64,000 nt of DNA, taken from positions 2,821 to 66,820 of the forward strand of contig CAZCYQ010000012.1 in NCBI GenBank assembly GCA_964503085.1. The letters run 5' to 3'. Shown in pieces: positions 5,970-64,000 of this stretch (the stretch's first letter is position 1; each line of letters opens with the position of its first letter). A program made the position numbers and the translations under genes. The notes beneath the pieces were generated by a model. The model was not told the DNA's origin, made no database searches, and was given only the letters and a program-made list of their open reading frames with translations. Source of the stretch: an uncultured Rhodothermaceae bacterium (GTDB lineage: Bacteria; Bacteroidota; Rhodothermia; Rhodothermales; Bin80).

Positions 5970-5972
5970 TCC

Positions 5973-6578
5973 ATGGGATTGCTCGGATCAGGTTCGCCCG
6001 TGACAGTATTGCTTCTCGTTGCTATTGTTATGGTAAGCGGCTTTGCACTCTTTGCCGACCCGACGCTGATTGACCGTCTGGGATTTAGGCCTACCCGGGT
6101 GGCAAAGGAGCCATACCGCTATATCACCGGTGGTTTTGTGCATGTTTCGCTCACGCATCTGGCATTCAATGCGATCACATTGTTCTTCTTCGGGCCAGTA
6201 CTGGAGGCGCGTATGGGAAGCACGGATTATCTGATTTTGTATGTGGGAGCACTCTTGTCTGCACATGCATTGACACATTTCCAGCATCGGGGAAACAGTT
6301 CGTATAATGCGGTTGGGGCGAGTGGGGCCATAAGTGGTGTACTCTTCTGTTATGTACTGTTTGCTCCGTATGATCGGATCTATATTTTTGCAGCGTTGCC
6401 TGTCCCGGCGGTGATTTTTGCATTCCTGTTTGTAGCGGGAAGCATTTATGCGATGAAAAGCGGGAGATCATTCGGGATTGCCCACGAGGCTCACCTAGGG
6501 GGCGCAATAGGTGGGTTGCTCCTCGCAATAATATTGGAACCGGGCATACTTCCCCGTTTTTTTGACCAGCTAATTTAA
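5973..6578 (+). CDS. Rhomboid-family intramembrane serine protease
   Basis: 201 aa and polytopic. It has the GASGAISGV (GxSG) motif and a downstream HLGGAIGG motif supplying the His. Confidence 0.75.
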   Translation: MGLLGSGSPVTVLLLVAIVMVSGFALFADPTLIDRLGFRPTRVAKEPYRYITGGFVHVSLTHLAFNAITLFFFGPVLEARMGSTDYLILYVGALLSAHALTHFQHRGNSSYNAVGASGAISGVLFCYVLFAPYDRIYIFAALPVPAVIFAFLFVAGSIYAMKSGRSFGIAHEAHLGGAIGGLLLAIILEPGILPRFFDQLI

Positions 6579-6837
6579 GCCACGTATGAATGAGTTGGCG
6601 CTGGACACCTAAATAGGAATCTGCAGGGCTTGTCTAGATTACCCAGAGCTGAGCTACATGTGCTGTGAGCGCCACTGTGCAAACTTGTGCGACCATGACT
6701 AGGTATACAAGTCGCTAGGTTAAGGATCGCGGTAAGTTTCCGAAGAAGGTTGTATTTGGTTTTTGTATTGTAACGATTCCAAGGTGCGGTCGAATGTTGA
6801 ATATTGCTTATAACTCTCCTTATCGTCTATCTCGGTT

Positions 6838-36600: not shown

Positions 36601-39600
36601 CTCGCGCCAGAGGGGTTCTCTGTATCGGAACTGGCTACGGTGCCGAGTGCTTTCGTTTCAGCTGCGCTGTCCTACGAGTTCTCGGGTTTGGAGGCTGGTG
36701 ATCGGGTGCTGATTCATGCCGGAGCGGGCGGTGTGGGTTTGGCTGCCATTCAGTTGGCTCAGGTCGTAGGGGCCGAAGTTTTTGCAACGGCGAGTGCTCC
36801 AAAACAGGAATATCTACGTTCGCTGGGGGTGGAGCATGTGTTCAATAGCCGCGATACACTTTTCGGAGCAGAAATTCTTGAGGCTACAAATGGTGAGGGA
36901 GTTGACGTAGTACTGAATAGTCTTACGAGCGAGGGTTTCATTGATGCGAGTCTGTCATGCCTTGTTCAGGGAGGCCGATTTGTAGAATTAGCGAGACGGG
37001 ATATTCTGAGTGAAGAAGAAATGGCTGTCGTTCGCCCAGATGTGAAGTACGCCATTCTTGAACTAGATGTACTCAAAAAAACGGACCCCGAGTGGGTTGG
37101 CCGGGTTCTCAGGAGCCTACTGAAACAATTTAGCGAGAGAAGTCTAACGCCCATTCGTCATAGCAGATGGCCGTTGGCAGAAGCAAGTGCGGCTCTGCAA
37201 TTTATGCGGTCCGCCCGCCATCTTGGCAAAATTGTAGTCACGACATCAGCCCTGGTAAGGGGGCAGTTAAGAGGGGATCGAACGTATTTGGTTACTGGCG
37301 GTCTGGGAGGAATCGGGCTTGCTGTCGCAAACTGGTTGGCGGATCATGGAGCAGGCGCCATCGTGCTGAACGGTCGGCGCCCACCGGAAGGGGAGGCACA
37401 GGAGGTCATTGATGCCTTGCAGGCGCGTGGCATTACCGTGCGAGTGGCTCTTGCAGATGTGACGGATCTAGCCGCAGTGGACACAATGCTTGCGGATATA
37501 CGCCGGGAATTGCCGCCCCTTGCCGGGGTAATCCATAGTGTAGGCGTATTATCAGACGGTGCTTTAGGGAACCAGACTTGGGATAGGTTTGAGCAAGTAT
37601 TGTGGCCCAAAGTAGTAGGTGCATGGCATTTGCATCGTGCTACTGCAGATTGTGATCTGGATTTGTTTGTTCTTTTTTCTAGTCGCGTAGGGGTCATGGG
37701 GAATCCGGGACAGGCGAATCACGCGACTGCGAATGCATTCTTAGATCAGCTTGCTGCGCACCGTCGTGCCATTGGACTTCCAGGTCAGGCGATTGCCTGG
37801 GGGGCCTGGTCGGAAATTGGCGAAGCTGCAGAACGAAGGGAGAGTATTGAGGAACGGAGGGCTGCACTTGGTGGCCGCTGGTTCACACCACAGCAGGGTA
37901 TCAAGGCGCTTGATAAACTGGTGCGTGCAGATGTAACGCATTCTGTTGTCATGGCGATGGACTGGCAAGTATTTCAAAAAGCTAGTGAGGATCGGCCGGC
38001 TTTACTAGGTGATTTACTTCATGACGCTTCCGAGGAAGAAGCCGATACGACAGTCGTTCTTGAAGATCCCATATCCCAGTTGCGCAGAATGCCAGCGGCA
38101 GAACACAAGGGTCTGCTCATATCCTTCCTCCAGCAAGAGTTACAAGCAGTATTGCGCTTGCCGAGTGCTCCCTCGTCAACTGTGGGATTTTTCGACCTAG
38201 GGATGGATTCATTGATGGCCGTTGAGCTACGGAATCGGTTAAATCGCGCATTTGCAGACGAGTATGTGGCATCAAATACAGTGGTATTTGACTACCCAGA
38301 CATCAATATGCTGGCGGAGCACTTGGCAGATGAATTAGGATCACTCGGTCCTGCTCCTGCCCCGCTACAGCTTGTTACGCAACAGCAGCCAGTAGTCCGG
38401 AATGAGGAGGACGGCATTGCAGTGATTGGAATGGCGTGTCGCTTTCCTGGCGCGCCGGACATTGAGGCATTTTGGGAATTACTTGAATCCGGCGGCAATA
38501 CCGTTTCGGATGGACGCAGTGATTCTGGTCCGTGGGAGGGGGTAGTGGGGGATCCTGCTGCTGAGGATCCTATCCTGAGATGGGGATCATTTCTGGACGG
38601 GTTGGATCAGTTTGATGCAGGTTTCTTCAATATCCGTCCGATCGAGGCCCACGGCATGGATCCGAGGCAACGTATGCTCTTGGAGACCAGTTGGCAGGCC
38701 CTTGAAGATGCTGCAATGGACCCCGATTCCCTCAGGCACAGCCGAACGGGAACGTACATTGGTTTGGCAGCCAGTGAATACCGTGATTTAATTTCGGGAA
38801 GCAATCAGGAGTACAATTATCTTGGCACTGCAGGAAGTGTCGCTATCGGACGTGTAGCTTTTCTGTTGGGGCTGATGGGACCAGCTGTGGCGGTGGACAT
38901 GACCTGTGCATCTTCTTTGGCTGCAATTCATCAGGCAGCTTCTGATCTCAAGTCTGGAGATGTAGATCTTGCTCTGACGGGAGGTGTCCATGTTGTTCTT
39001 TCTCCTGCGATCACAAGGTTTATGGCGGAATACGGCATGCTATCGTCAAGCGGAAATTGCCGGACATTCGATGCAAGTGCGGATGGTTTCGTTCGGGGAG
39101 AGGGCTGTGGCGTTGTAGTACTTAAGCGGCTAAGTGAAGCCGTATCCGATGGGGATCGAATATGGGGTGTCATTCGCGGTTCTGCATTGAATCAAAATGG
39201 TCCGAGTGCTTCGCTTACTGTACCGAGCGGTCAAGCACAGAAGCAGGTGCTTGAAGATGCGCTTGGTCGAGCTGGAATTCCGCCTTCGGAGGTTGACTTT
39301 CTGGAAGTACATGGGACCGGTTCCCAATTGGGAGATCCGATTGAAGTGAACTCAGTTGCTTCCGTATATGGTAGGGATCGTGAATCAGATCGCCCACTTT
39401 TACTTGGAACGGCAAAGACCAATATTGGGCATCTTGAGTCTGCGGCAGGAGTTGCGGGCCTCATTAAAGTGTTATTGGCTATGGAGCGGAGAGTGATCCC
39501 GAAGCATTTGCATTTTGAGGAACCGAATCCGCATGTGGAGTGGGGTCAGTTGCCGGTTCAAGTCACATCGGAGAAAATAGAATGGCCAAGGCGAGCTGAC

Positions 39601-40929
39601 CGGCCACCGCGGGCGGGAGTTAGCGCTTTTGCAATCTCAGGGGCGAACGCCCACGTAGTGGTTGAGGGTTACAATGTACCGGGCGATACGGGACTTAGTG
39701 TTCCTATAGGTTCGCCAGAATATATTGCTGTTCCCAATCTGAAGATGGGAGTGAACCTACCAGATCCTGTAGACGAGGATCAGCGGCGTTTGAGGCTACT
39801 GCCCCTATCCGCGAAATCAAACGAGGCACTACAGGCATTGGCGGGAGGGTACCTTTCCTGGCTGGATGAGCATGTCAAAGAGCCGTCCGAGCAGGACTCG
39901 AACGGGTTACTGTCAGACATGGCCTGGACGGCAGCAGTGGGAAGGAGTCACTTATCCCATCGTGCCGGTATTGTATACGAAGATGAACGGTCGCTACGAA
40001 ATGGACTGATGAGCGTCGCCGGCACGAATGGAAGATTACCTGTTCCTGCAATAGCTCCAAAGGTAGCATTCGTCTTCAATGCAGAGGAGACTCTAGGACT
40101 TGAAATGGGAGAAGAATTGTATCGTAGCGAGCCAGTGGTGCGTGCAGTCCTGGATCGTTGTGATGAGCTACTTCAAGGAGAACTCGGAGGCTCCCTACTG
40201 GATGTGATGTTTGGGCGTTCAAGTAATCTTTCCGACTCGGAGGTATGGCGGTCCCCAGCCGTTTTTGCCCTCCAATGCGCCCAGGTTGCGCTATGGGAGA
40301 GTGTCGGGGTTTCTCCAGATGTGGTCTTCGGGATCAATACGGGGGAACTAGCGGCTGCGTATGCGGCCGGCGTTTTGAAGCTTGAGGATGGATTGGTCCT
40401 TGCGGCGCGGTGCACTGAACTGATGAATGGAAATCTCGAAAGCGGGAACGCCCAAGCTATCCCGGCGGAGGTAACCTTCGCACCACCATCCACCCACATG
40501 GTGAGTAGTGTGACAGGCCTGCAGGTAAGCCCCGAGATATCTATGGACGCAGCGTATTGGACCCGACGGGCGCGTTCACCCGTGGCATTTGGCAAATGTG
40601 TTGCAACCATTGCGAAAATGGGGGTGACTGCCGTAGTGGAAGTTGGTCCTGACATGCTCTTGAAGTCAAAAATTCTTTCAGACTGGCCAAAGGCCGCACA
40701 GCAGACTACGAATGGTGTACAGGTGCCGATTGTATTGGCAAGCTTCAAGAGACCGCGAAACGGTTCAACCGACGAATCTATGGGGAGTAGTTTTTCCCAG
40801 TCCGTTGCAAGGTTGTATGAGGCAGGTCTCAATCTGAATTATTCAGGACTGTTTGCCGGAGAAAAGAGGAGTCGAATCTCACTGCCTAGTTATCCTTTCC
40901 AACGTGATCACTATTGGTTCAAGACTTGA
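30679..40929 (+). CDS. Type I polyketide synthase, 3416 aa: KS-AT-DH-cMT-ER-KR-ACP-KS-AT(degenerate)
   Basis: KS1 has Cys181 in DAACASS (nt 31219-31221), His316 and His356. AT1 has GHSVG Ser660 (nt 32656-32658) and KAFHS His766. DH has H970 in HQVFGRVIAP and HPLILDGCFQ. The cMT motif I is IIEVGAGTG (aa 1469-1477). ER has HAGAGGVG (aa 2013-2020). KR has TGGLGGIG (aa 2206-2213). The ACP has GMDSL Ser2511. KS2 has Cys2743 in DMTCASS, plus EVHGTGS and NIGHLES. AT2 lacks its catalytic motifs. Confidence 0.95.
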   Translation: MNQDKTPLAIVGMACKFPGAASIQEFWHFLVSGRNSVMEVPVGAGNRRVDVMFADIPNLPDACHFCSYLDDIEQFDPQFFRISPVEANWLDPQQRMMLETSWRALEDAGIDPLGLKGSLTGVYTGISNYEYRMRIVESNHKPADAASSLYAMSGTSMSGPNGRVSFFLGLRGPSKAIDAACASSLVAVNDAVSDLQRGKIDMAIVGGVQNILSGHVFKIRADAGILAPDGQCKVFDASANGYVRGEGCGVVVLKRLHEAEADGDKVWAVIRGSAVNHGGDSVGMTVPHTPALEQVMGQALMDAGVTAAEVDYVEAHGTGTSVGDPIELEAMSAVYGQGRESDRPLLVGSVKTNIGHLESAAGIAGLIKAVLVLQRGVIPKHLHFHNPTPAVDWDKMHLRVTSEMMDLPASNGRPRLAGINSFGISGTNSHIILEEYLAKNGTSNEQNRVIYLPQTASASGELESPLSNGEVTPQRQTRLLPLSGKSPAALQSIAENYVLWLNERGKEVTLNGSAAAPLFADMAWTAAVGRSHFEHRSGIVFHDEASLRQKLAALSVSADNIHSQSATTIAFAYTGQGSQWTGMGRAIYECEPVARAVFDRCEAIFKAERKVSLLDAIFGHTDCDLSNTAWEQPALYALECALTALWASIGIQPSVVIGHSVGELAAAQAAGVFSLEDGMRFAITRGALFAETDPGAMAAVFTSPAQVASAVEEINASTPGIGLSVSANNGTHQVVSGPIPQIQSIIERFESEGTRVKRLNTSKAFHSALMEPVLDTLEASLSEIAIQAPSLKVVSNLTGEVVGSSQTLDGAYWRRHARQAVAFASGVQTISELGVDLIIEIGPRPILTNMVALAWPESERPPSIISSLQVPSGDIPENAAKSDFEQAVAQAYQAGLTIEFEGLFTGEDRRRIQLPGYPFLRDHYWIRESKRRGFSAGDHPLLGSRRDFASGEVAYETEVFRSSPNWLQDHQVFGRVIAPGALYGAMAASACLTEGSGLVIVDDMQLHNALVFPEQKPSDSEDDNGREVQILVAPAEAERPQRIQIFSRGEGEDWVMHVEGNLSSDTAMPEESGQVNLEDLKAGMSTGSASSYYQARADTGIDLRSSFRTLKRFWYKPGEAVGEVSFPDTIESNELDIHPLILDGCFQVVAAARNPGGVEGETTYLPFGWDRLWLSGRLPDSVVCHVRMNEVPKGAKEKSGATAEIMSAELRIYDTSGTLIGGLSGYIVKRATRGALLSAVEDIDDLLYEILWRESPLVPALLPADFLPSPGTVAANSGLLSAYLSEEGVQPEERNALLDDLERWSRSRALATLEELGWKRKQGDIIESEVLRKRLGVISDHERVFRRMLEMLAKSGILEEKDGSFLVRNASGDALPDEMPADLEAFADGMAERFPHGTTEVGLFRRCGTALGEVLRAQKDPLTLLFSSGDPTPGDLYLKAPVARAANRILKETVAALVSELPAERHLRIIEVGAGTGSATAAILPELPEGRFDYMYTDISAGFFSEAEARFGGKPMEYRPLNIENDPVGQGFEMHSYDLLIASNVLHATRYLHETLEYCRDLLAPSGQLVALENLSGQGWMDLTFGQLDGWWRFADDYRPHHALANPAVWRRALSDAGFGEVEILGIEETDSTRRHDKGVIVAQGPTEIQERTGVWALVADHNGTAQGLAEDLVCNNQAVVLVDAGIADSKNPALELEEPGKTQVTIDINCRESWEELLRSISKDLPLKGVVHLGALDGAGPNASTYEMAQDTRRIVESALVLVQAVIDTNVIPDKGIWFITQGAQVLEREFTGQLAGAALWGFGKGVSRELTHLQTRMIDLDPAETAGKPDLVTELLSPDHENHVAYRNGRRNVARLARENVGLERLSFPDDAPWVLAPDPDGVIENIHVKTLSHRGLEPKEVRVAVKAAGLNFWDVFRSLAFIHEGNLGREVCGDVLEVGSEVTTVSVGDHVVGLGFGAFAAEMVTHGDLVALAPEGFSVSELATVPSAFVSAALSYEFSGLEAGDRVLIHAGAGGVGLAAIQLAQVVGAEVFATASAPKQEYLRSLGVEHVFNSRDTLFGAEILEATNGEGVDVVLNSLTSEGFIDASLSCLVQGGRFVELARRDILSEEEMAVVRPDVKYAILELDVLKKTDPEWVGRVLRSLLKQFSERSLTPIRHSRWPLAEASAALQFMRSARHLGKIVVTTSALVRGQLRGDRTYLVTGGLGGIGLAVANWLADHGAGAIVLNGRRPPEGEAQEVIDALQARGITVRVALADVTDLAAVDTMLADIRRELPPLAGVIHSVGVLSDGALGNQTWDRFEQVLWPKVVGAWHLHRATADCDLDLFVLFSSRVGVMGNPGQANHATANAFLDQLAAHRRAIGLPGQAIAWGAWSEIGEAAERRESIEERRAALGGRWFTPQQGIKALDKLVRADVTHSVVMAMDWQVFQKASEDRPALLGDLLHDASEEEADTTVVLEDPISQLRRMPAAEHKGLLISFLQQELQAVLRLPSAPSSTVGFFDLGMDSLMAVELRNRLNRAFADEYVASNTVVFDYPDINMLAEHLADELGSLGPAPAPLQLVTQQQPVVRNEEDGIAVIGMACRFPGAPDIEAFWELLESGGNTVSDGRSDSGPWEGVVGDPAAEDPILRWGSFLDGLDQFDAGFFNIRPIEAHGMDPRQRMLLETSWQALEDAAMDPDSLRHSRTGTYIGLAASEYRDLISGSNQEYNYLGTAGSVAIGRVAFLLGLMGPAVAVDMTCASSLAAIHQAASDLKSGDVDLALTGGVHVVLSPAITRFMAEYGMLSSSGNCRTFDASADGFVRGEGCGVVVLKRLSEAVSDGDRIWGVIRGSALNQNGPSASLTVPSGQAQKQVLEDALGRAGIPPSEVDFLEVHGTGSQLGDPIEVNSVASVYGRDRESDRPLLLGTAKTNIGHLESAAGVAGLIKVLLAMERRVIPKHLHFEEPNPHVEWGQLPVQVTSEKIEWPRRADRPPRAGVSAFAISGANAHVVVEGYNVPGDTGLSVPIGSPEYIAVPNLKMGVNLPDPVDEDQRRLRLLPLSAKSNEALQALAGGYLSWLDEHVKEPSEQDSNGLLSDMAWTAAVGRSHLSHRAGIVYEDERSLRNGLMSVAGTNGRLPVPAIAPKVAFVFNAEETLGLEMGEELYRSEPVVRAVLDRCDELLQGELGGSLLDVMFGRSSNLSDSEVWRSPAVFALQCAQVALWESVGVSPDVVFGINTGELAAAYAAGVLKLEDGLVLAARCTELMNGNLESGNAQAIPAEVTFAPPSTHMVSSVTGLQVSPEISMDAAYWTRRARSPVAFGKCVATIAKMGVTAVVEVGPDMLLKSKILSDWPKAAQQTTNGVQVPIVLASFKRPRNGSTDESMGSSFSQSVARLYEAGLNLNYSGLFAGEKRSRISLPSYPFQRDHYWFKT
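30697..31983 (+). other. PKS domain KS1 (ketosynthase, catalytic triad intact)
   Basis: From IVGMACKFPG to GTNSHIILEEY. The C-H-H residues are present. Confidence 0.85.
32371..33273 (+). other. PKS domain AT1 (acyltransferase, malonyl-type xAFH motif)
   Basis: Motifs FAYTGQGSQWTGMG, GHSVGE and KAFHS. The post-AT linker YPFLRDHYW lies at about 33427-33453. Confidence 0.8.
33490..34383 (+). other. PKS domain DH (dehydratase)
   Basis: Motifs HPLLG, HQVFGRVIAPG and LILDGCFQ. Confidence 0.75.
34876..35598 (+). other. PKS domain cMT (SAM-dependent C-methyltransferase)
   Basis: Motifs IIEVGAGTGSATAAIL, YDLLIASNVLHAT and APSGQLVALE. The boundaries are approximate. Confidence 0.7.
36361..37263 (+). 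other. PKS domain ER (enoylreductase, MDR family)
   Basis: Motifs VRVAVKAAGLNFWDV, LIHAGAGGVGLAAIQLA and GKIVVT. Confidence 0.8.
37276..37833 (+). other. PKS domain KR (ketoreductase catalytic subdomain; expected catalytic Tyr is His2348)
   Basis: YLVTGGLGGIGLA is present. FSSRVGVMGNPGQANHATANAFLD occurs where the canonical motif is GQxNYAAAN. Confidence 0.75.
38086..38313 (+). other. PKS domain ACP
   Basis: FFDLGMDSLMAVELRNRL, with Ser2511 at nt 38209-38211. Confidence 0.85.
38410..39678 (+). other. PKS domain KS2 (catalytic triad intact)
   Basis: Motifs IAVIGMACRFPGAPD, DMTCASS, EVHGTGSQLGDP and NIGHLESAAG. Confidence 0.85.
40051..40929 (+). other. Degenerate AT-like domain plus post-AT linker, ending the protein
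   Basis: FVFNAEETLGLEMG replaces GQGxQWxGMG. GINTG (aa 3218-3222) replaces GHSxG. The small subdomain carrying xAFH appears to be deleted. The protein ends YPFQRDHYWFKT*. Confidence 0.75.
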
Positions 40930-52688: not shown

Positions 52689-54857
52689 ATGATGCAATCT
52701 CAACACGATCGCCCCGCACTGGGACAAGTCTGGTTGGCATGCACGGCCTTGCTCTTGTACACAATGACGGCGACTGCACAGCATGCCCCGCCCGATTCCA
52801 GTCGTGTAGATTCGATCCGTACAATCCGGATGGATCCCTTGGTTGTGACAGCTACCCGATCCGAGAAAGTTCTCGAAGACGTAGCTGTACCCACGAGTGT
52901 AATTATGGCAGAGGTTATGGAGCGTGAAGGTGCTTCACGCCTAGGTGATGTATTGGCCTATCAGATGGGAATGGCCTTGTTTGATGATCACGGCACTGGG
53001 CTGCAGGTACAGGGATTCGCATCGGATTATACCCTCATTTTACTTAACGGGGAGCCGGTGATTGGCCGTACTGCCGGCACACTTGACGTAGATCGAATTA
53101 CTGTGAAAGGCCTGAGTCATCTGGAAATCGTGCGTGGTCCATCCTCGTCGCTCTACGGGAGTGAAGCCCTGGCTGGGGTTGTCAATTTGATTACTGCACC
53201 GCCTGCGGAAGGCATGGAAGGGGCCGCGAGCTTTCGTATTGGCTCCCACTCCACCTCGGACATGGCATTTCAAATAGAAGGTGGACGTGAGCACGCGGGA
53301 GTGCGACTAGTTATCAACCGGTACGCCTCGGATGGTTATGACTTAACCCCGGAAACCTATGGTCCGACGACTCCCTCCTTTGCCGATTGGACGGGGGATT
53401 TAAGGGGGCGCATGATCTTATCTGATCGTGTCCAGGTCAGACTGGGTGCTCGTGGGACCATCCAAAACCAGGAGAGTGCATTTGCCTCGCAGAATAGTGA
53501 ATTGATTACGAATCGCTATAACGATGAGGGTAGAAGATTTGAGTGGAGTCTCCATCCAGAAGTTGAAGTTCAGCTTAATGATAAAATCCGACTCAACACG
53601 ACGCTATACGGTACTAGCTACCAGACCGAGACCAATCATCGACGCCAAATAGACGGGTTTGTCAATTATGAAGACAAATTCGATCAGATGTACTCCAAAG
53701 CGGAGCTGCAGTTGGATATGCTTTGGGACACAAGGCATCTAACCAATCTGGGAGGTGGAGTGATTGGTGAACGGATTGGCGGAACCAGGTACGGGTCAAC
53801 CGGAACTGATCCAAGCCCGGAATCAACACAGGCCTATCTTTTCGCTCAGCATGAATGGCTGGCTTCTGGTAAGCTTCATTTCAATACAAGCCTTCGTTTC
53901 GATAATCATTCCGATTATGTCGCCAGGTTTACCCCAAAATTTGCTGTATTGGTTCGCCCGTCAAGTGGAGTACGCTTGCGCGCAAGTGTTGGCAGTGGTT
54001 TCAAGGCTCCGGCCTTTCGCCAACTTTATCTAGCTTTCACAAACCCGGCGGGGGGATATTCTGTCTTTGGCTCCTTGCCAATGAACGAAGGAATTACACG
54101 GCTGGAAGCCGAAGGGCAGATTGAACAAAGATTGTTTGATCTATCTCGGTTGGATCCCCTGAAGGCGGAAAGCTCTGTTGCATTCAATCTGGGTGGGTCC
54201 GTAGATCTATTTCCGTGGCTCACGGTTTAGGTCAACGTATTTCATAACAACGTTCGAGATCTCATTGAAACGCAGCCTGTTGCCCAGAAAACGAACGGAT
54301 CATTCGTATACGGAAATTTCAATCTAGCTCAGATCTACACTCGGGGAGTTGAATTTGAAGCGAGGGTCAATCCACAGTTGGAATGGCGAAGCTCAGTAGA
54401 TATCATTTTGGGGTATCAATTTCTTCAGGCCCGGGATCGCGAGGTTGTCACGGCGCTTAAAGAAGGCTCGGTATTCGGGCGTCTTCCAAATGGGCGAGAT
54501 TATCGGTTGGGTCTTGGTGATTACACGGGAATGTTCGGGCGTTCACCGCATTCAGCCTCGGTCCGTGCTGCCTATATCAACCTGGCCATTGGCCTGACAG
54601 CGAGTATTCAGGGGCGCTGGCGCAGCCGCTATGGATATCGGGATCTTGATGGCAATAACCTAGCCAATCGATCAGACGAATTTGTCCCAGCTTATGCCGT
54701 ATTTGGTGCGGCAGTAACCAAAACGGTTTCAGTTGTTCGGGCTTTTGAAGCAATTGTGCAGTTAGGCCTGGACAATGCTTTAGATCACACATATCCCACT
54801 TTGGTGCCCTCGCTTTCAGGGCGCCAAGGCTATGTATCACTCCAATTTAATTTCTAG
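52689..54857 (+). pseudogene. TonB-dependent receptor interrupted by a single in-frame TAG (54228-54230)
   Basis: ORFs 52689-54230 and 54378-54857 are in the same frame. The stretch between them reads through as VNVFHNNVRDLIETQPVAQK...TRGVEFEA, which are typical barrel strands. The plug motifs are DPLVVTATR and GSEALAGVVNLIT. The C-terminus is ...LQFNF. Confidence 0.8.
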
Positions 54858-55608: not shown

Positions 55609-56264
55609 TGAGCAGGATCTGTCCAGATGTGTATTGGAGAAGAACGGAGGTGTTAAGACGGTTTGAGGTGCTCTGTCAAGGCTGGCTGATCGTAGAAATG
55701 GTGAAGAAGTTCCTGTAAGACGGTAGACGGAGCCATCAAGGCAGACGCATCGGTGCAGGTCACAGCGGATGTACATTTCTGGGAGAAGGTTCGTCCGATG
55801 ATCTATGTGGAGGTGTACTTATACCACCTGCACCGGCTGCGTTGCCGAAACGGCTGAGCAAGTTTGCCTTCTGGTGCGCCGAGGAAGCGCAATCAGATGT
55901 AGCGGAGCCTCTGTACAATAAGCATCTGTTCGTGGTTTACAGCATTTACGGGGCGAAGAAGAACTCTGAACGTTCGCGCCGGGGGGGGTATTGGTTGCAA
56001 TGAATCTTACCACCGACGGTCCATCTCATTATGTGCAGTGCAAAGGCATCCAAACGGAGGTGGCGCAGCTACTGTATATAGGGTGGGCTCGTTGATGCAT
56101 TCTATGATGCTCATATGATTCTATGTAATGAGGACAGTCCATTCAACTCTGATCCGGGTAAACTCTGCTTCCAGGTGCAGTAGTCTAATAGACGGACTGG
56201 ATAAAGTACAGGGCACCTTAGTTGAATCTGAAAAATGACTGTACAGTTACATCCAGCGCCCAGA

Positions 56265-58100
56265 TTATGTACGGAGTGAAGCTTCTTCCTTAGAGGGCGT
56301 GAAGTAGCTCCAGAAATCTCCTGTCAATTGCCTGTCTATTGCAGGTAGATCCCGTTCTAGGCGAGTCCAGAAATTTTCCTTCTTTGCCCACTCTGACGGG
56401 TTTTGAACCGGCCTGGCATCAAGGTACAGGATATTTCTGGCAAATTTCGCGATCAAGGCCAGCTGACTTACAAATGAATCGTTGACAATTTGCTCTTTCC
56501 AGATTTTTCGGTAACTCAGGATCATATCTCTATTATTGCCAAGCGCATTGGCTGCCGAGAGTGTATAGGCAACGATATTGGCCCGGTAGCCACCCCGATT
56601 ACGGTACCAATCCTGACGCGAAACCATGCGTTCGGTAGCTTTGAAAACTATGCCGCGGGCAATAATTCGTTGATAATAGTCTTCATTGAACTGTTCAGGT
56701 GATTGCTTCCATGCCTCTTCTATTCGCTGCATATATTGTATGAAATTCTTCTGCGCCCCTAGATTTACCCAGTGTGGAGCGTCATCCCATACATTTTCGA
56801 ATTTGGCGAGGTCGGTTTTTGTGAATTTCTTTGGGTACTTAGCCTTGAAGCGCTTCTTTTCTGCATATGATAGCATGGATTGCTTGTCTGCATACTGCCC
56901 CCTAGAGCGTTCATAAAACCACTTGGTTTGATTTAGCTCACCTTCAACAGCGGGTGTCCATATGCGACGGGAGAAGTTTTCTATTTTGATGTGGAATGGA
57001 TGGTTTGACCGGAGATCCGGGATACTTACCTTGTTCTGTGTATTCGCGTATTTTGCGATTTTCTGGATTATTTCTGGGCCAAGGTTATCACTAATCTCAG
57101 AAATCTTCATCTGGACAAAAACCTTTGACAGGTCTGGAGCATTTTTTAATTGAGATGCATGATAAAGTGAAACCATAGTTTGCCCTCCATTCACAATCTG
57201 GAGATCACGAATCCGGATAATCCGACTCTTGTCTTCGTTGAGCCGTATATCCTGTGCGGTGGCGGTTATGCCGTTGTTGTAGGCGAAAAATCTGTGAGGT
57301 TCAATCAGAATCGTGTTACGGATTCCTTTGTTCACATTTCCGCGTGCCTGCAGGAAGCAACGCACATTCTGCTCCAAAAGGCGGGCTCCATATTCCTCAT
57401 ACAGATCAGCCAGGGTTTCCCCCGAGATAACGGCCAGATATGATTTAAAAGCGTTGAGGCCTACATGTGCTCTGAGACAGGGTAGCCCACGTTGAAACAT
57501 GTCAATCAGATTTACATCCAGTGGCACTCGCCCGCTTCGTGAGCTGTGCTGGCGATGCAGGCGTGAAATATCCCAGATGGAATAAACCGCTGTAACACCA
57601 CTCAAATCCTGATTGTCGATTGACTTACTGCGAGTACTGAGATATCGCTCGGAAGACAAAATGAAGTTGACGCGCCGAATTTGGTCCTTTTGATCATAGA
57701 TTCTGCGGGACAATTGATACTCAGGTGATGTCTCATCAAAATCCAGGTAGAGTGGATCTTGTCTCGACTTAGACTTAATGAAAAAACTACGAGCTTGCTT
57801 GAACTCGCTTTCATAGTCCCTCTTATTGAGTGGCTCAAGGGTTTGCCTGTTCTCAAAATCTGCAAGATGTAAATCCAAAGTAGTTTCACCTTGATGAAAA
57901 AAATATCCGTCAATTTTCATCCCGCCTCTACCGCTCCGACGGTAGTGGCAATGTTCAAATCCATGAAAGTCACCAGCTTCAATCAACTGTTCCGAGATTA
58001 TGTCAAGAAAGGTATTGCGCTGAAACGTGCCATGAGTTCTTGCATCAATCTGCAATTGCTGGCGGAATTCCTCGAAATACTCGTCAAGCTTCATTTGCAT
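56265..58100 (-). CDS. AIPR (abortive-infection phage-resistance) family protein
   Basis: 611 aa. The N-terminus is EYFEEFRQQLQIDARTHGTFQRNTFLD...IDGYFF. The core is FFAYNNGITATA...LQIVNGGQT, which is AIPR-typical. An alternative ATG at 58094 gives a 4-nt ATGA overlap with the upstream stop. Confidence 0.8.
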   Translation of the reverse strand: MQMKLDEYFEEFRQQLQIDARTHGTFQRNTFLDIISEQLIEAGDFHGFEHCHYRRSGRGGMKIDGYFFHQGETTLDLHLADFENRQTLEPLNKRDYESEFKQARSFFIKSKSRQDPLYLDFDETSPEYQLSRRIYDQKDQIRRVNFILSSERYLSTRSKSIDNQDLSGVTAVYSIWDISRLHRQHSSRSGRVPLDVNLIDMFQRGLPCLRAHVGLNAFKSYLAVISGETLADLYEEYGARLLEQNVRCFLQARGNVNKGIRNTILIEPHRFFAYNNGITATAQDIRLNEDKSRIIRIRDLQIVNGGQTMVSLYHASQLKNAPDLSKVFVQMKISEISDNLGPEIIQKIAKYANTQNKVSIPDLRSNHPFHIKIENFSRRIWTPAVEGELNQTKWFYERSRGQYADKQSMLSYAEKKRFKAKYPKKFTKTDLAKFENVWDDAPHWVNLGAQKNFIQYMQRIEEAWKQSPEQFNEDYYQRIIARGIVFKATERMVSRQDWYRNRGGYRANIVAYTLSAANALGNNRDMILSYRKIWKEQIVNDSFVSQLALIAKFARNILYLDARPVQNPSEWAKKENFWTRLERDLPAIDRQLTGDFWSYFTPSKEEASLRT

Positions 58101-59158
58101 TCGTTCGCGCTCCAGATAGTTTCAAGTGGACAAACAAAGGGTTCTGCGGCATCAATCTGCAGTTTATATCTCACGTTCTGAAGGCCTCCAGGAAGTTCGG
58201 ACCGGACAATTCGGGGGAACTTACCAGTAACGCGATAGACACATGTTTCGGCGACTTGAAATGAGGGGCTGTCGTATTGCTGGAGTTCGGCATATCCTGC
58301 GGTAGCCAGTTTAATCTGGTACTCTTCGAGTGCAGGACTCTCTATCAAATCGCTTTCAATTCTCTGTGCCATTTCATTGAGAGACAAGGCCGCGGGTAGC
58401 TCAGTGCTTTCAATAATGCGTTCAACCGTCAAAAAGAGGTGCTCGGCTGGACTCTCTAACTGGTCTTCGGAGGAGATATGGACAAGGTTTGGGCCCTTGT
58501 TCGAGATGGTCTTTATCTCTACTGCTGTATTATCGAATACAAAGTCCTGATTTCCCCCCTTCGGTCCTATCCATGCATCTAGTGCGTCACTTTGGCTGAG
58601 CTTATTGGTATAGAGGGACCGAAGAAAGTACAGTTCCGCAAAAAGGCCTCTCACTTCCGCAGGTGACAAAAGTTGAGGTCTTTCCCCAGCAAGAAATCGT
58701 TGCCAGCGCTTCAATTGATTCAATGTAATCGTCAGAGCCGTCCTAGAATCAGATGTATTGCTGAGACTCCGTATCAGCGTATTGCACAGAGCATGGAACA
58801 GGTCAAGATTGATATTGCTGACCAGTGTTATGACCAAGATTTGTGTAAGGGTTCCAGGGCGCTGTCGAAGGTCAATATCAATGCCCTGAACGTTCATATT
58901 TGCTTTGAGGAATGCCTCTTGATGGTCTCCGTCAAGTTCTGCAACCAGGAGGCAATGTCCGTGCACGTCTTTGCCCCAATAGACTGGAATCAGTCCATCA
59001 GTATTGATTATTCGAACATTGTAGTCTGTGTTAGGCTGCTGGATGTCGTCCCAGGGCGTGGAATAGATCATAGCTTTGGTATAGAAATAGCTTTGTTCAT
59101 GCTCAGGTTTAATCGTCTCCGGCATCGAAATCATCATCGAGCATGCCATGGGTGGCAA
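58091..59158 (-). CDS. PD-(D/E)XK motif nuclease-like protein
   Basis: 355 aa. The putative nuclease core is QDFVFDNTAVEIKT (D...E-x-K). It is sandwiched between and overlaps the Z1 and AIPR genes. In-frame Met codons lie at 59158, 59149, 59137, 59134 and 59125. Confidence 0.65.
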   Translation of the reverse strand: MPPMACSMMISMPETIKPEHEQSYFYTKAMIYSTPWDDIQQPNTDYNVRIINTDGLIPVYWGKDVHGHCLLVAELDGDHQEAFLKANMNVQGIDIDLRQRPGTLTQILVITLVSNINLDLFHALCNTLIRSLSNTSDSRTALTITLNQLKRWQRFLAGERPQLLSPAEVRGLFAELYFLRSLYTNKLSQSDALDAWIGPKGGNQDFVFDNTAVEIKTISNKGPNLVHISSEDQLESPAEHLFLTVERIIESTELPAALSLNEMAQRIESDLIESPALEEYQIKLATAGYAELQQYDSPSFQVAETCVYRVTGKFPRIVRSELPGGLQNVRYKLQIDAAEPFVCPLETIWSANECK

Positions 59159-59408
59159 ATAATTCTGGTTGTATGTAAACCGGATTTGCTACGACTTCCA
59201 CCTCAGTGATATAATCATCTGGTGGAAAACCCATACTAATCGTTGGAAGACGGACATTTTTCTGCGACGAACCTGTTTTTCCAGTCAAGACATGTATCAT
59301 GAGGAGTGGACATTGTCGCACTGCACGATAGTCTGCGTCAATAAGGTTTCCCTCGCGTTTGTTGTTTTTTGCTCGCTCACGAGCTTCATTTACCTGTTCC
59401 TCTGAAAG
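59109..59408 (-). pseudogene. Displaced C-terminal fragment of the Z1-domain gene (cut off by the IS21 insertion)
   Basis: After deleting 59409-62070, the minus-strand frame reads ...RGDEGLGLS|EEQVNEARERAKNNKREGNLIDADYRAV...DDDFDAGDD* without a frame change. Confidence 0.8.
59404..59408. repeat. Target-site duplication GAAAG (left copy)
   Basis: It lies immediately outside the IS end that begins TGCATATTCC at 59409 and is identical to 62066-62070. Confidence 0.8.
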
Positions 59409-59499
59409 TGCATATTCCGACGATGTGGGGCACTGATTCCGACGATGTGGGGCACCAATCCGAGCGAAGCGGGGCACCATTCCGATTGATGCGGGGCAC
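59409..59499. repeat. IS21 left-end array: four 22-bp-spaced repeats ending ...GGGGCAC
   Basis: The GGGGCAC units end at 59433, 59455, 59477 and 59499. Confidence 0.85.
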
Positions 59500-59521
59500 T
59501 TGTGTGGTGTTAGACTGTCTT

Positions 59522-60283
59522 TCATGATGTTGTGGATTTGATCGTCAATTCTTGTTCACCCTGGATCTTTCGCATGGAGTCTCCGGTCAACTGAATTTTG
59601 TGGGCATTGTTGACCAGTCGGTCCAGGATTGCGTCGGCTAATGTAGGATCTTCCATGGTCTGATGCCATTTGTCCAGGGGGTACTGACTGGTGACAATGG
59701 TAGATCGGAGGGTATAGCGGTCATCCACGAGTTCCATCAGATCACGCTGTTGTGCGCGACGAATGCCATGCAGGCCCCAATCATCGAGGAGGAGTACATC
59801 AGTGCGGGCCAGCTGTTTCAACGTACGAAGGTAGGTGCGGTCTTCGCGCGCGAGCTGGAGCGTTTCCAACAGGCGATGCAGGCGGTAATAGCGGGTTCGG
59901 AAGTTTTCCAGGCAGGCCTTGTGGGCCAGCGCACAGGCGACATAGCTTTTACCGACGCCGGTGGGTCCGGTAATCAGGATATTCTGACGCCTTCGGATCC
60001 ATTGGCAACCGGCCAGGTGAAGCATCAGGCGCTTGTCCAGTCCGCGAGAGGGACGGTAGTCCAGATTGGCCATGCAGGCCTGAAGGCGTAGCTTGGCCAT
60101 CTTCAATCGCCGGGCCAGTCGCCGATCTTCGCGTACAGCTTCCTCATGGTCGACCATGAGGCCAAGACGATCCATGAACGACATCGCCTCTATCTCTGGC
60201 GTCTCCAATTGATTGCGCAGTGCGGTGGCCATACCGCCGAGCCGCATCTGCTCAAGTTTTGAGAGGGTTGGGTGTATAAGCAT
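59522..60283 (-). CDS. istB: IS21-family helper ATPase IstB
   Basis: 253 aa. Walker A motif ITGPTGVGKSYVACALA and Walker B motif LLLDDWG. Confidence 0.9.
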   Translation of the reverse strand: MLIHPTLSKLEQMRLGGMATALRNQLETPEIEAMSFMDRLGLMVDHEEAVREDRRLARRLKMAKLRLQACMANLDYRPSRGLDKRLMLHLAGCQWIRRRQNILITGPTGVGKSYVACALAHKACLENFRTRYYRLHRLLETLQLAREDRTYLRTLKQLARTDVLLLDDWGLHGIRRAQQRDLMELVDDRYTLRSTIVTSQYPLDKWHQTMEDPTLADAILDRLVNNAHKIQLTGDSMRKIQGEQELTIKSTTS

Positions 60284-61833
60284 TAAGGGGTTCCGTTTGA
60301 GGTGTAATAGTTGGCTCCACGAATATTTTCGTGTTCAATAGGGGGCTCCTGATGCAGCTCGGTCGTCATGCGTTTGACGATCTTTTTCACCGCAGGTGAA
60401 CTCAGGGTTTGTTGCTCCAATGCGATCGCGCAGGCCTTTTCCAATACGTCATGCCCAAACTCACTCCCCAGTCTGAGAATGGCCAGACAGCGCCGATAGG
60501 CCTGCTCCGGGATCAGAAAGCGTGCAAAGTTCGCTTCAATCAAGGCGGTGGTCTGCGGACCGATGGTTTGTGCCCAGCGAATGAATCGCTTGGGAGACCA
60601 CTTCGCATACTCCCGGTGGTGAACCGGCATATGGATCACGTTGGTCGTGTATTGACCGCTGGCGAGACTGCGTATATGCGACGCAATCCGCTCCTCTCCA
60701 AGGTAAATCTCTACGGTACATGAACGAATCAATCCGCGCACAGACTTCCCAACGTAGGTATGCGGCACGCTGTAGAAGTGCTTGTCAATCTGTACATGGT
60801 AATCTGGCCCCACTTTCCGTTTGCCGGTCCAGACACCATACACATACGGATTCGCCGGTAGTGGACGCAGCGCCGGCCGATCCACGTCCTCAAACCTGCT
60901 TCGTCGGGTGCCCGGCATCTTCTGGAATGGCGTCAAATTCAATACCTTGACCTCCTCTAATATGGCGGCATTGAGCTCCTGAAGGCTGAAAAACGTCACG
61001 TTGCGTAAGACCGCCAGAATATTGCGCTGGGCATGCAATACCCCCGATTCCACTTTTCCCTTATCCCGAGGCTTCCGAGGACGGGCTGGAAGCACCCCGA
61101 CTTGGTAATGCTCCGTCAAATCCCGGAAGGATTCATTCAGAACCGGGACATCGTCCTTCTTGAATTGAATCACGGCGGACTTCAGATTGTCCGGTACAAT
61201 CGCGCGGGGAACACCACCCAAAAACTCCAACGTCCGGCGAACAGACCCGCAGAAATCGCGCGCCTTTTGCGTCTCGGTGGCCTCTGCATACAGATAGTTG
61301 GAAGCCCCCAGTACCGCGACAAACAATTCTACGGTTCGTACGTCACCGGTATCCAGATCAACCACGCAGGGCTTCTTTCCTGAATAATCCACGAATAACC
61401 GGTCTCCGGCCTTATGGTTATGACGCATCACTGGATCCACATTGGCGCAGCGCCAACTACGGTACAGATCACAAAAACGACTGTATTGGTACCCCTCTGG
61501 ATGCGCCGCGATATATTCTTTCCAAAGCTGCGCCAGGGTCAGCGTACGGTGTTTGGTGAGTTCCAGCTGGACCTCAGCCCAGTTCGGCACCGGCCGCTGT
61601 CCCGATGCAGATCGGGCCGTGGAGGGATAAAGGATCGCCTCCAACTCAGCATCCGTCATCCTGTCGGGTAACGGCCAAGTCAGATTCGCCACCGTGGCGC
61701 GCTCAAGAATCCGGGATACCGATCCGCGGCCCATTCCCACCTCGCAGCCAATCGCGCGATGGGACAACTTGAACGCAAATCGCAGTTCCAGAATACGCTT
61801 GATCTTCTTCATCGATACACGCTGTGCAGGCAT
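60283..61833 (-). CDS. istA: IS21-family transposase IstA
   Basis: 516 aa. The N-terminal HTH is MKKIKRILELRFAFKLSHRAIG (the likely true start is the Met at 61812). The DDE core contains LFVDYSGKK and VPDNLKSAV. Confidence 0.9.
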   Translation of the reverse strand: MPAQRVSMKKIKRILELRFAFKLSHRAIGCEVGMGRGSVSRILERATVANLTWPLPDRMTDAELEAILYPSTARSASGQRPVPNWAEVQLELTKHRTLTLAQLWKEYIAAHPEGYQYSRFCDLYRSWRCANVDPVMRHNHKAGDRLFVDYSGKKPCVVDLDTGDVRTVELFVAVLGASNYLYAEATETQKARDFCGSVRRTLEFLGGVPRAIVPDNLKSAVIQFKKDDVPVLNESFRDLTEHYQVGVLPARPRKPRDKGKVESGVLHAQRNILAVLRNVTFFSLQELNAAILEEVKVLNLTPFQKMPGTRRSRFEDVDRPALRPLPANPYVYGVWTGKRKVGPDYHVQIDKHFYSVPHTYVGKSVRGLIRSCTVEIYLGEERIASHIRSLASGQYTTNVIHMPVHHREYAKWSPKRFIRWAQTIGPQTTALIEANFARFLIPEQAYRRCLAILRLGSEFGHDVLEKACAIALEQQTLSSPAVKKIVKRMTTELHQEPPIEHENIRGANYYTSNGTP

Positions 61834-61951
61834 AGGTCATAGGTTTTGGTGAAACCAAAAACTATGCAGAACCCGACCTGGATTAGATGAGAAACAAACC
61901 GCCTTCGATTTGATGAACGCGCATCAACGCCGCAGAATACCGGCTTGTAAA

Positions 61952-62065
61952 GTGCCCCACTTCGCTCGGAATGGTGCCCCGCTTCGCTCGGATTGATGCC
62001 CCGCTTCGCTCGGATTAGTGCCCCACTTCGCTCGGATTGGTGCCCCAGTTCGCTCGGAATACGCA
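61952..62065. repeat. IS21 right-end array: five 22-bp tandem repeats GTGCCCC(A/G)(C/G)TTCGCTCGGA...
   Basis: The units start at 61952, 61974, 61996 (ATGCCCC variant), 62018 and 62040. Confidence 0.85.
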
Positions 62066-62070
62066 GAAAG
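62066..62070. repeat. Target-site duplication GAAAG (right copy)
   Basis: It lies immediately outside the IS end ...GGAATACGCA at 62065. Confidence 0.8.
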
Positions 62071-64000
62071 CCCCAGTCCTTCGTCTCCACGGCTTGCGAC
62101 TCGATGTTTATTTACAATCCATGTTCCGTTTTTTTCCGCAAACTTTCTCTCCTGGGCTCCCAGGTGTAGTGATTTGGATGGATCCTCTCTATGTTCAATC
62201 GAAACTACGACTACATCACATGTGTGGTATTTATCGGATGTTTTCCGCAAATAGTTGATAACACCGGCCTTTCTATGTTCAATTGATTTATCAATGTTGA
62301 ATTGGGTCAGGAAGCGCTCAACCTTCTCCGTAGGAACATTGCGCACGATCCATCCCTTAGTACTTTCACTGCCTGGTCTCTTTGCACGCTCTAGGTTCTC
62401 ATTTGCCCATGTATCTGATATGAGCTTTTCATTTCTGGAATTCAGACTAGGATCCTTGGAGAGAATTACAAATTCCTGATATCGTCCACCATAATTGTAG
62501 CGAAGAGTTAGCCTCTTCCCGCTTCGCATTTTTCCTGGTGAAGTGATCAGAAGCCGATCCGGATGCGTTTCTACGTACAGTCCAAAATCTTTGGGGGTCT
62601 TGCCCATTTGACGCATAGTTCGAACTTGGTCAATCAGTTCCTGGGTAGCCTCGGCAACATGCGAATACCATGAAATTGCATCTCCAGAGAGATGGACGCG
62701 GCAAAGGTCTTCATACCCAATTCGATACCCGAACCATCGTCCCATCTGCATCAGCGTATCGTACATCCTGGTGTTGCGATAGACATAGCTCACGCACAAT
62801 CCTTCAATAGTGAGCCCACGTGAAAGACTCAATCCTCCGACTGCGACGGCCGTAAGCCCACTTCCACTCGCCTCATGTTTTTTATAGTCCAGTCTGTCGT
62901 CAGACTGTCCATTAATCAAAAACAGACGAATACTAGTAGCTGCTTCTTGGAGCTCAGCCTTAATATCTACCCAGGTGTGACCACAATTCGGGAATGCCCG
63001 GTCGAAAGCGGTTTTCAGCTTTTGCATGCTTACATTACGGGAGGAGATTGACTCCGGCATCGCGTAATTCGCCTGCACGGCGTCTTTAACTTCTCTCAGA
63101 TAAATGCTCACTAGGTCACGGATTTGCTTTTGAATGTTGACAAATCGGGACACATTAATCATCATGGAACAGTGGTGTGCCTGATAGCCTCGCAGGTTTC
63201 GAATAGCTCTTGCAAGGATGAATTCATTCAAAGCTGTGTACAGACTGGCTGGGAGCGCAGAAATTTTACGATCTTTCTTGTGACTCAAAGGCAAAACATC
63301 ATCACAATCCGTAATCGGAATGGTCACCGGATTTTGAACATTTTCGTCTAAAAACACCTTTTCCGGTCCAAAGTAACTGGTAGGCGGATCTAGGAAGTAG
63401 ATGAAATCTCGTGGGAACAGATCTTTGTGCACCTCCTCATCATTGGCCTTAGGGTTAATGAAGATGTTTGCAAATGGCGTAGCAGTATATCCTACGAAGC
63501 CGGACTTTGCAAACAGTCGCAGGATCTTTCGGATTAACCGATTGGTTCGGGTAGGATCATGCTCATCTTTATTCGTATTGATTGAAGCATGATCCGCTTC
63601 GTCATCAATTAGAAGCATCGGAACTGTTTCGATTTGGTCGGCCCCTTGGGCGTTCATGTCCTTTAGCCAGTGGTAGAGGGAGGTCAGCACACTCACGTTT
63701 TTTTTGACGACCAGAATTATCGGTCTGCTAAAGTCATTCAATCTCCACCCGCTTTGTCTAGCTACTTGTTTATTAAAGTCGTGACTGACATTCGTAAGCG
63801 TTACTGGGTGATCGAATTGAGAGGTGTGCCCCGGGTCCCTTTTTCCGACGCCAATTATATGTTTATGTGATTCTGAATCTCGCCCCACAAATCCCTCGTC
63901 AATGCGTTGCTGAGTCTGGCTTCGGAGTACATTATGGATTCCGGCAATCACGATAATGAACTTGTATCCTGCGTCTGCCGCCCGGGTAATCAATGCAAGA
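62066..64000 (-). pseudogene. Z1-domain protein, main body; 5' end off the window, 3' end disrupted by IS21
   Basis: The frame is open to the window edge (...LALITRAADAGYKFIIVIAGIHNVL). It contains LLIDDEADHASINT (DEAD-like) and FVGYTATPFANIF. The last ~47 aa of track ORF 61924-63993 (AYSERTGAPIRAKWGTNPSEAGHQSERSGAPFRAKWGTLQAGILRR) are a translation of the IS21 end, mostly its 22-bp repeats. Confidence 0.8.

Follow-up and report, generated by a model that had tools for sequence, protein, structure and literature searches.

The distal end of the window, i.e. of the whole 64-kb stretch of DNA analysed here, which derives from an uncultured Rhodothermaceae bacterium, carries between positions 56265 and 64000 a group of minus-strand genes encoding proteins of the AIPR, DUF4420 and Z1 families. 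Judged by gene order and domain content, the operon to which these genes belong is related to the Mza anti-phage system and linked to a methyltransferase; it lacks MzaA and possesses Dcm and Vsr instead. A probability of about 75% is assigned to the joint reading that the window holds the distal half of this six-gene operon, that the operon provides a direct, restriction-like defence and that the present copy has been broken by an insertion sequence (IS). All positions refer to the window; genes beyond position 64000 were read from related contigs, which are designated by L-numbers.

Genes of the window and the interrupted Z1 gene

Two genes of the operon, encoding the AIPR and the DUF4420 protein, are intact in the window, whereas the third is represented by two fragments (62066 to 64000 and 59109 to 59403), since an IS21-family element splits the Z1 gene. 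In the underlying list of open reading frames (ORFs) the region appears as minus-strand frames of 611 amino acids (aa; 56265–58100), 355 aa (58091–59158) and 138 aa (59109–59525), together with a minus-strand frame of more than 689 aa, which extends from 61924 and runs off the window end. The region is composed as follows:

56265–58100, minus strand: mzaE-like gene, AIPR family, intact; 611 aa, or 609 aa if started at the second ATG (58094)
58091–59158, minus strand: mzaD-like gene, DUF4420, predicted PD-(D/E)XK nuclease, intact; true start within 59101–59158
59109–59403, minus strand: 3' fragment of the mzaC-like gene, codons 797–893 plus stop; lacks a start codon of its own
59404–59408, no strand: copy of the target-site duplication CTTTC (minus-strand reading), identical 5-mer at both IS borders
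59409–62065, minus strand: IS21-family insertion sequence, 2,657 bp (NCBIfam transpos_IS21 1e-76, IS21_help_AAA 5e-76)
59522–60283, minus strand: istB, 253 aa
60283–61833, minus strand: istA, 516 aa
61924–62065, minus strand: broken Z1 frame read on into the IS, which adds 46 foreign residues before a stop (ORF 61924–63993)
62066–62070, no strand: second copy of the duplication CTTTC (minus-strand reading), identical 5-mer at both IS borders
62066–64000, minus strand: 5' fragment of the mzaC-like gene (Z1, SF2 helicase-like), residues 152–796; first 151 codons beyond the window end

A sequence-only reading of this DNA had described three tightly coupled, co-directional minus-strand genes. Strand and coupling are as described: the Z1 stop codon (59109–59111) falls within the candidate starts of the DUF4420 gene (59101–59158), and the TGA of the latter (58091–58093) forms an ATGA overlap with the second ATG of the AIPR gene (58092–58094), where the database gene call for the AIPR protein (P0121, 609 aa) begins. 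The Z1 gene itself, however, is broken by the IS and not merely located near one. The motif strings on which the reading relied are found in the respective ORFs, namely LLIDDEADH (within MLLIDDEADH) and GYTATPFANIF in the Z1 ORF, the PD-(D/E)XK string DFVFDNTAVEIKT in the DUF4420 ORF and IVNGGQT in the AIPR ORF. No claim is made that the last of these is akin to the 'DGQQR' motif of ParB/DUF262.

Searches with profile hidden Markov models matched the Z1, AIPR and DUF4420 proteins to their families far beyond chance. The mzaE-like protein matches Pfam AIPR (3e-92) and AIPR_N (5e-36), PADLOC MzaE (3e-73) and NCBIfam MzaE (1.5e-95), yet reaches only 321 bits in the latter model, the cutoff of which is 1050. 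The mzaD-like protein is recognized by Pfam DUF4420 (3e-62), PADLOC MzaD (2e-19) and NCBIfam MzaD (3e-34). Its catalytic motif E175-D205-E214-K216 is complete, and the corresponding E-D-ExK columns are at least 90% conserved among 69 homologues. An exact look-up of the 355-aa DUF4420 ORF found no record, because gene callers choose a later start. The Z1 protein matches Pfam Z1 (1.6e-73), PADLOC MzaC (1e-111) and NCBIfam MzaC (3e-135), yet with 452 bits as compared to a cutoff of 1500. Its 5' fragment comprises the motifs DDEADH and TATP as well as DTLMQMGRWFG, the signature of Z1, at residue 565 after reconstruction, and the Walker A motif GNVQSGKT is located just off the window.

Sequence and profile searches of the PDB with the AIPR, DUF4420 and Z1 proteins were empty or returned noise, so that no solved structure was found. 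An AlphaFold2 model of the AIPR protein, calculated from a 32-sequence alignment, reached a mean predicted local distance difference test (pLDDT) of 74.6 and a predicted template modelling score (pTM) of 0.48, with a confident N-terminal domain and a poor central AIPR domain. A Foldseek search of the PDB with this model gave nothing at E ≤ 0.001. Its top match was McrC (6ut7_G; E 0.058, template modelling score 0.13–0.18), a weak lead that the AIPR_N domain might resemble a restriction endonuclease (RE). The corresponding model of the Z1 protein (18 sequences; pLDDT 58.5, pTM 0.34) was unusable.

The IS21-family element is present as a single copy in the window. In minus-strand reading it extends from TGCGTATTCCGA... 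(at 62065) to ...TCGGAATATGCA (at 59409), and both ends enclose arrays of a 22-bp repeat, with five units on the istA-proximal side (61951–62058) and about four at the other end (59414–59501). Nucleotide identity to known istB genes and IS21 members is at most ~65%, and the element appears to be an undescribed member of the family. Deletion of the IS and one CTTTC copy in silico fuses the two Z1 pieces in frame, which gives 742 codons within the window and 893 in total with the off-window start, and places the insertion point at codon 796 of 893. Of the 249 columns that show no variation in 18 homologues, 247 are retained after reconstruction, and the two deviations are both conservative substitutions. 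Fifteen invariant columns are situated past the junction at residue 796, on the 3' fragment, for which tblastn against the intact orthologue spans residues 795–884.

The Z1 protein thus loses 97 conserved residues from its C-terminus, and 2.66 kb now separate mzaD/E from the 5' end of the operon. Since the conserved C-terminus is lost and mzaD/E are cut off from the operon start, the window copy of the operon, or at least its nuclease half, is most likely inactive. The insertion looks recent, given that the two copies of the duplication agree perfectly and no other reading frame is damaged.

Upstream half, conservation and surroundings of the operon

The sequence-only reading had expected the operon to continue past position 64000 and to include a cytosine methyltransferase, vsr and a GHKL/HATPase gene. 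The continuation is borne out by contig L005, in which all three partners are present. L005 overlaps window positions 64000–59476 and reaches 3,993 bases further; as not a single mismatch occurs in the 4,525 shared bases, both derive from the same strain. In addition, the product of the broken Z1 gene is on record with 100% identity (P0003, 842 aa, of which 796 are native and 46 IS-encoded) and is carried by six short-read contigs of the run series SRR8304769-86.

The dcm gene of L005 encodes a C5 cytosine methyltransferase (TIGR00675 6e-38, above cutoff) with motifs IV, VI, VIII and X, motif I being located upstream of a poly-C tract described below. It is followed by vsr (TIGR00632 1e-44, above cutoff) and by the gene for a GHKL protein of 477 aa with a HATPase_c_3 domain. 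The latter matches PADLOC MzaB (1e-79) and NCBIfam MzaB (5e-91), yet with 305 bits as compared to an equivalog cutoff of 850, and among solved structures MORC2 and MutL are its best matches. The complete gene order is therefore dcm, vsr, MORC-type GHKL ATPase, Z1/SF2 ATPase, PD-(D/E)XK nuclease and AIPR. In the window, L005 and L010 the genes are co-directional, and their start and stop codons overlap or abut.

Orthologous, complete six-gene operons are located at the same locus in L010 and L011 (Z1 90% identical) as well as in L094 and L095 (84%). The HmuY and TonB-receptor genes that follow the AIPR gene in the window are also found next to the operons of L010 and L011. L094 and L095 lack these two genes and keep the other downstream genes of the window (adh_short, PIG-L, beta-lactamase); the genes upstream of dcm are common to L010 and L094. 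No ORF for a sigma-70-like protein corresponding to MzaA was found upstream of the operon in L010, where dcm and vsr stand upstream of the GHKL gene, nor was there a convincing regulator ORF upstream of dcm. When the window strain is compared with L010, the ratio of nonsynonymous to synonymous substitution rates (dN/dS) is 0.13–0.23 for five of the six genes (0.13 for mzaD, 0.17 for mzaE) and 0.56 for the short vsr, which points to past purifying selection on five of the six genes. At 1–2872 of L097, a related metagenomic contig, one further gene each for a HATPase_c_3 protein (683 aa) and a DNA methylase (434 aa) immediately precede the poly-C dcm, and two GHKL/methylase modules may be stacked in this contig.

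A scan with the Z1-protein alignment against one genome per species yielded 80 loci from many phyla with 37–65% identity, the nearest being metagenome-assembled genomes (MAGs) of Rhodothermales; neighbours were counted by tblastn with the six L010 proteins. The gene order proposed for the trio is kept in other genomes, with AIPR downstream of Z1 in 74 of 74 loci and, when a strict limit is set on distance, DUF4420 in 68 of 74. The same is true for the suggested company of a Dcm-type methyltransferase and an ATPase: the GHKL gene is located directly upstream of Z1 in 74/76 loci, and a distance of at most 10 kb holds for Dcm in 48 of 51 loci and for Vsr in 41 of 51. The Dcm/Vsr pair either precedes the core in the same direction, precedes it with vsr divergent, or follows it on the other strand. 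Because their place and orientation vary around four constant genes, the system is composed of a fixed four-gene core and a movable modification module. It is distributed sporadically across phyla and also found on plasmids. Mza-type systems as a whole are widespread, with at least 8,000 scored relatives per protein query.

The AT-richness noted in the sequence-only reading is real, with 45.8–46.2% GC in mzaC/D/E versus 50.8 ± 1.6% in 3-kb windows across the rest of the stretch, but it is modest. A value of 45.8% is also reached by one other part of the window, and the upstream genes are not AT-rich (dcm 52%, vsr 53%, MORC 49% GC). Similarly, the IS invoked for horizontal acquisition is present, but recent acquisition appears doubtful, because the operon occupies the same chromosomal site in relatives (84–90% aa identity) and neither a tRNA gene (island-boundary scan) nor an integrase among the flanking genes (island-boundary check) was found nearby. 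Promoter and terminator scans gave counts no higher than the shuffled expectation.

The neighbourhood of the operon is decaying, as illustrated by the remnant of a SWIM gene and an interrupted TonB-dependent receptor gene. At 55776–55966 (plus strand) an SNF2-SWIM pair has shrunk to the final 65 codons of its SWIM zinc-finger gene, and a run of eight G at 55981 adjoins this remnant. L010, L011 and L013 keep the complete pair of SNF2-helicase and SWIM genes between AIPR and HmuY, so that ~3.8 kb has been deleted here. The gene for the TonB-dependent receptor (Plug and beta-barrel; 52689–54857, plus strand), downstream of HmuY, contains an in-frame TAG at 54228–54230, by which it is split into ORFs of 513 and 159 aa, while the L010/L011 orthologue of ~721 aa is uninterrupted; the gene is probably a pseudogene. 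Unrelated to the defence operon, positions 30679–40929 (plus strand) encode a multimodular type I polyketide synthase of 3,416 aa with the domains KS, AT, DH, methyltransferase, ER, KR, ACP and a second KS.

The poly-C tract in dcm

In L005, methyltransferase motif I (DLFAGPGGLGEGF) and the remaining part of dcm are in different frames, separated by ten C. This tract (L005 174–183) is located ~3.8 kb past the window end, between motifs I and II. Contigs L005, L006 and L007, which stem from different runs, are identical over 8.5 kb save for the length of the poly-C run. The following tract lengths were found:

L005 (three samples): C10, out of frame
L006: C9, in frame, giving a Dcm of 520 aa
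L007: C8, out of frame
Related lineages, in frame: C5 in L012, C6 in L013, C12 in L099, C13 in L097
Related lineages, out of frame: C10 in L010, L014, L094 and L098; C11 in L095

The pattern carries the signature of a contingency locus, as read from assemblies only, for which homopolymer error stays a live alternative. We tentatively propose, at clearly less than even odds, that the tract switches dcm, and by polarity perhaps the whole dcm-vsr-mzaBCDE operon, in free-living Rhodothermales. It is possible as well, though again improbable, that the length differences merely reflect sequencing or assembly noise and that dcm is simply intact or simply a pseudogene. Homopolymers of 8–13 C are error-prone, the lengths stem from automated short-read assemblies, and one lineage (84% identity) has an out-of-frame dcm in all recorded contigs (at least 12). 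Noise would not readily account, however, for a tract that is found at the same codon position in lineages of 59–94% identity with lengths of 5, 6 and 8–13, some in frame and others not. The dcm tract accounts for all seven C/G runs of nine or more in 135 kb of sequence from the clade, as compared to a background of five such runs in the 1.54 Mb of the 80 loci; the window itself contains no C/G run longer than 8, and dcm genes from other phyla are continuous ORFs with no tract. Moreover, the part of dcm 3' of the tract is under purifying selection between two out-of-frame alleles (dN/dS 0.16), and a cluster of dcm sequences of at least 94% identity comprises three full-length, in-frame and three truncated, out-of-frame calls from different archives; one of the truncated calls comes from what seems to be the assembly of the window genome itself.

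Programmed +1 ribosomal frameshifting at C10, the commonest state, was considered and rejected as the primary explanation, since in-frame alleles with C9, C12 and C13 exist and since the 0-frame stop is located eight codons downstream and not at the slip site.

A second, independent IS strike on the operon is found in L013, a Rhodothermales MAG, in which an ISL3-family transposase gene (5368–6764, 428 aa, DDE_Tnp_ISL3 5e-74) lies inside dcm, while vsr and the four mza-like genes are intact. Due to the out-of-frame tracts and this insertion, dcm-off alleles beside intact nuclease genes are common in the clade. Possibly such 5' lesions silence the whole operon by polarity, or the core, like canonical Mza, tolerates self DNA with no need of Dcm. 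If the contingency locus is real, this would be a phase-variable Mza-type defence system, and the dcm-off alleles would mean either that the nuclease module is co-silenced or that it tolerates unmethylated self DNA, in which case Dcm would not provide the self-mark. The clade offers a natural series of intact operon, dcm out of frame, dcm::ISL3 and mzaC::IS21, which bears on the question whether self-tolerance of the nuclease half depends on the methylase. The IS-free reconstruction of the operon, in turn, is a synthesisable and testable construct.

Proposed mode of action and comparison with known systems

Combining the Mza literature with the domain content of the six proteins, the operon is proposed to act as a direct, nuclease-based, ATP-dependent, restriction-like defence. 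Previously, E. coli MzaABCDE was reported to give 10^3- to 10^4-fold protection against T4 with cytosine or hydroxymethylcytosine and lower protection against glucosylated T4, with no growth arrest at any multiplicity of infection; purified MzaD cleaves phage DNA, the D187A and P297A mutants are weakened, and protection is lost in nuclease mutants (bioRxiv 10.1101/2022.06.16.496414). A statement in PMC9523054 likewise describes mzaABCDE as experimentally validated, citing Gao 2020. Phage protection has been reported for Mza of Salmonella and E. coli and for a Serratia subtype, which gives at least 1000-fold protection. Apart from the cutting of phage DNA by purified MzaD (bioRxiv 10.1101/2022.06.16.496414), the view of the sequence-only reading that the trio has no biochemically defined mechanism holds in substance, and neither a solved structure nor a defined mechanism was found for Mza-type Z1, DUF4420 and AIPR proteins.

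From these data we infer the following division of labour. Dcm would set a 5-methylcytosine mark on host (self) DNA, and Vsr would repair the T:G mismatches that result from deamination of 5-methylcytosine, thereby limiting the mutational cost of the mark. A dimer of the MORC-type ATPase would serve as a DNA clamp that loads on or tracks along DNA, and the Z1 protein would be a motor doing likewise. The MzaD-like nuclease would cut the DNA, and the AIPR protein may be a sensor or adaptor. Of these steps, the role assigned to methylation is the weakest. The MORC partner is of broader interest, since bacterial MORC proteins have been proposed as ancestors of the eukaryotic MORC chromatin ATPases.

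Several observations weigh against a restriction-like Mza relative that has been inactivated in the window. The NCBIfam scores for MzaB to MzaE are far below the equivalog cutoffs and MzaA is absent, and PDB searches and models gave no fold assignment for the AIPR or Z1 protein. The truncated Z1 protein might conceivably still function, with mzaD/E being transcribed from the IS. Canonical Mza, as found on plasmid pCSC3H3, has no methyltransferase of its own; in five related lineages dcm is out of frame (C10/C11) beside an intact vsr-mzaBCDE, and in L013 it is split by the ISL3 element with five intact downstream genes. Some of the data therefore dispute a strict need of methylation for self-protection. 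Restriction-modification logic has to accommodate both Dcm in 48/51 loci and the six lineages in which dcm is out of frame or IS-disrupted although the nuclease genes are intact, which polar silencing could reconcile.

Another explanation builds on these points and holds that the MzaBCDE-like core is methylation-independent and senses another cue, as canonical Mza must, with Dcm and Vsr being an accessory or epigenetic module. This is in line with the sigma-70-like MzaA and the missing methyltransferase of canonical MzaABCDE, with the varying position and orientation of Dcm/Vsr around four fixed genes, with the three of 51 loci that have no Dcm within 10 kb, and with the out-of-frame or IS-interrupted dcm alleles in six lineages with intact downstream genes. 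It remains the less probable account, however, given that Dcm within 10 kb of 48/51 loci across phyla indicates a strong functional link and that GCAGC is modified genome-wide in Listeria strains with a methyltransferase-encoding mza (PMC10687267). Furthermore, all lesions that inactivate dcm are located at the 5' end of the operon and would be equally tolerable under restriction-modification logic if they silenced the nuclease genes by polarity, as they could.

Abortive infection, in which the AIPR protein would be a toxic effector, killing or arresting infected cells, and the remaining proteins would be sensors, is unlikely. Although the family is named as an abortive-infection protein and the present member also matches the PADLOC AbiU model (6e-27), E. 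coli MzaABCDE causes no growth arrest and its nuclease mutants lose protection (bioRxiv 10.1101/2022.06.16.496414), and the presence of two ATPases and a methyltransferase next to a dedicated PD-(D/E)XK nuclease suggests that DNA is the target. Even less probable, to the degree that we give it hardly any weight, is a module for DNA repair or recombination in which a MutL-like ATPase, helicase, nuclease and Vsr extend Dcm-associated very-short-patch repair. The relationship of the GHKL protein to MutL and MORC2, its best solved relatives, and the cooperation of MutL and Vsr in E. coli (PMC2292703) would fit, but the sporadic distribution across phyla and on plasmids, the validated anti-phage activity of relatives and the repeated inactivation by ISs and frameshifts, typical of costly accessory genes, do not. 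Restriction-like defence by a Dcm-linked Mza relative accordingly remains our preferred reading.

Comparison with known systems revealed that the module is not nameless, since the PADLOC and NCBIfam models of MzaB, MzaC, MzaD and MzaE are the top matches of four consecutive genes, and the layout was published in 2008 and 2022. With Mza (Gao et al. 2020, Science; PADLOC 'mza'; NCBIfam NF041932-NF041935) the operon shares order and domain content, GHKL, Z1, DUF4420 and AIPR corresponding to MzaB, C, D and E. Near full-length identities to the RefSeq-labelled Mza of the Thalassospira plasmid pCSC3H3, the AIPR gene of which is labelled mzaE, amount to 39% (MzaB), 39% (MzaC), 27% (MzaD) and 32% (MzaE). 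In contrast to canonical Mza, which is headed by the sigma-70-like MzaA, also on pCSC3H3, the operon of the window is headed by dcm and vsr and is broken by an IS. By its low model scores and the absence of MzaA it is a relative and not an equivalog of Mza; MzaA is present in only few of the related systems of Miller et al. (PMC9523054).

The architecture corresponds to the type-3 MORC operon, a predicted restriction-modification operon, of Iyer, Abhiman & Aravind 2008 (PMC2292703), which comprises a MORC GHKL ATPase, an SFII helicase, an RE-fold protein, a cytosine methylase, Vsr and AIPR, and from which the present operon shows no substantive difference; that description is purely computational and gives no mechanism. 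The MORC S5-domain motif GhXhhpXXRhl of that work reads GIYVYRNCRLV in the GHKL protein of L005, the C-terminal motif DThhQXuRhFG of the SFII helicase reads DTLMQMGRWFG in the Z1 protein, and the E-D-ExK motif of the RE fold is represented by E175, D205, E214 and K216 of the mzaD-like protein. As in the 2008 operons, cytosine methylase and Vsr genes neighbour the MORC and helicase genes. The putative 'type II' system of Miller et al. 2022 (PMC9523054) has a core of Z1, PD-(D/E)XK and cytosine methyltransferase proteins together with AIPR and MORC, and the same likeness to mzaBCDE is stated for it. It differs in that its identity to Mza is ~20%, whereas the present locus reaches 27–39% to one Mza example, and in its associated transcriptional regulator, which is not seen upstream of dcm here.

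To Type I and Type III ATP-dependent restriction-modification systems the operon is alike in working only and not by membership, as it combines a methyltransferase, an ATP-driven motor and a nuclease; its proteins are unrelated to Hsd or Mod/Res, and it has two different ATPases and AIPR. In the same limited sense it resembles phase-variable methyltransferases ('phasevarions'), as a simple-sequence repeat early in the methylase gene could switch expression. As further differences, the methylase belongs to the Dcm-type C5 enzymes and is accompanied by a Vsr, and its putative phase variation is deduced from assemblies only. In conclusion, the cassette adds no new kind of system, the Dcm-linked layout having been in the literature since 2008, and the one new point of this locus is the candidate phase-variation switch in dcm.

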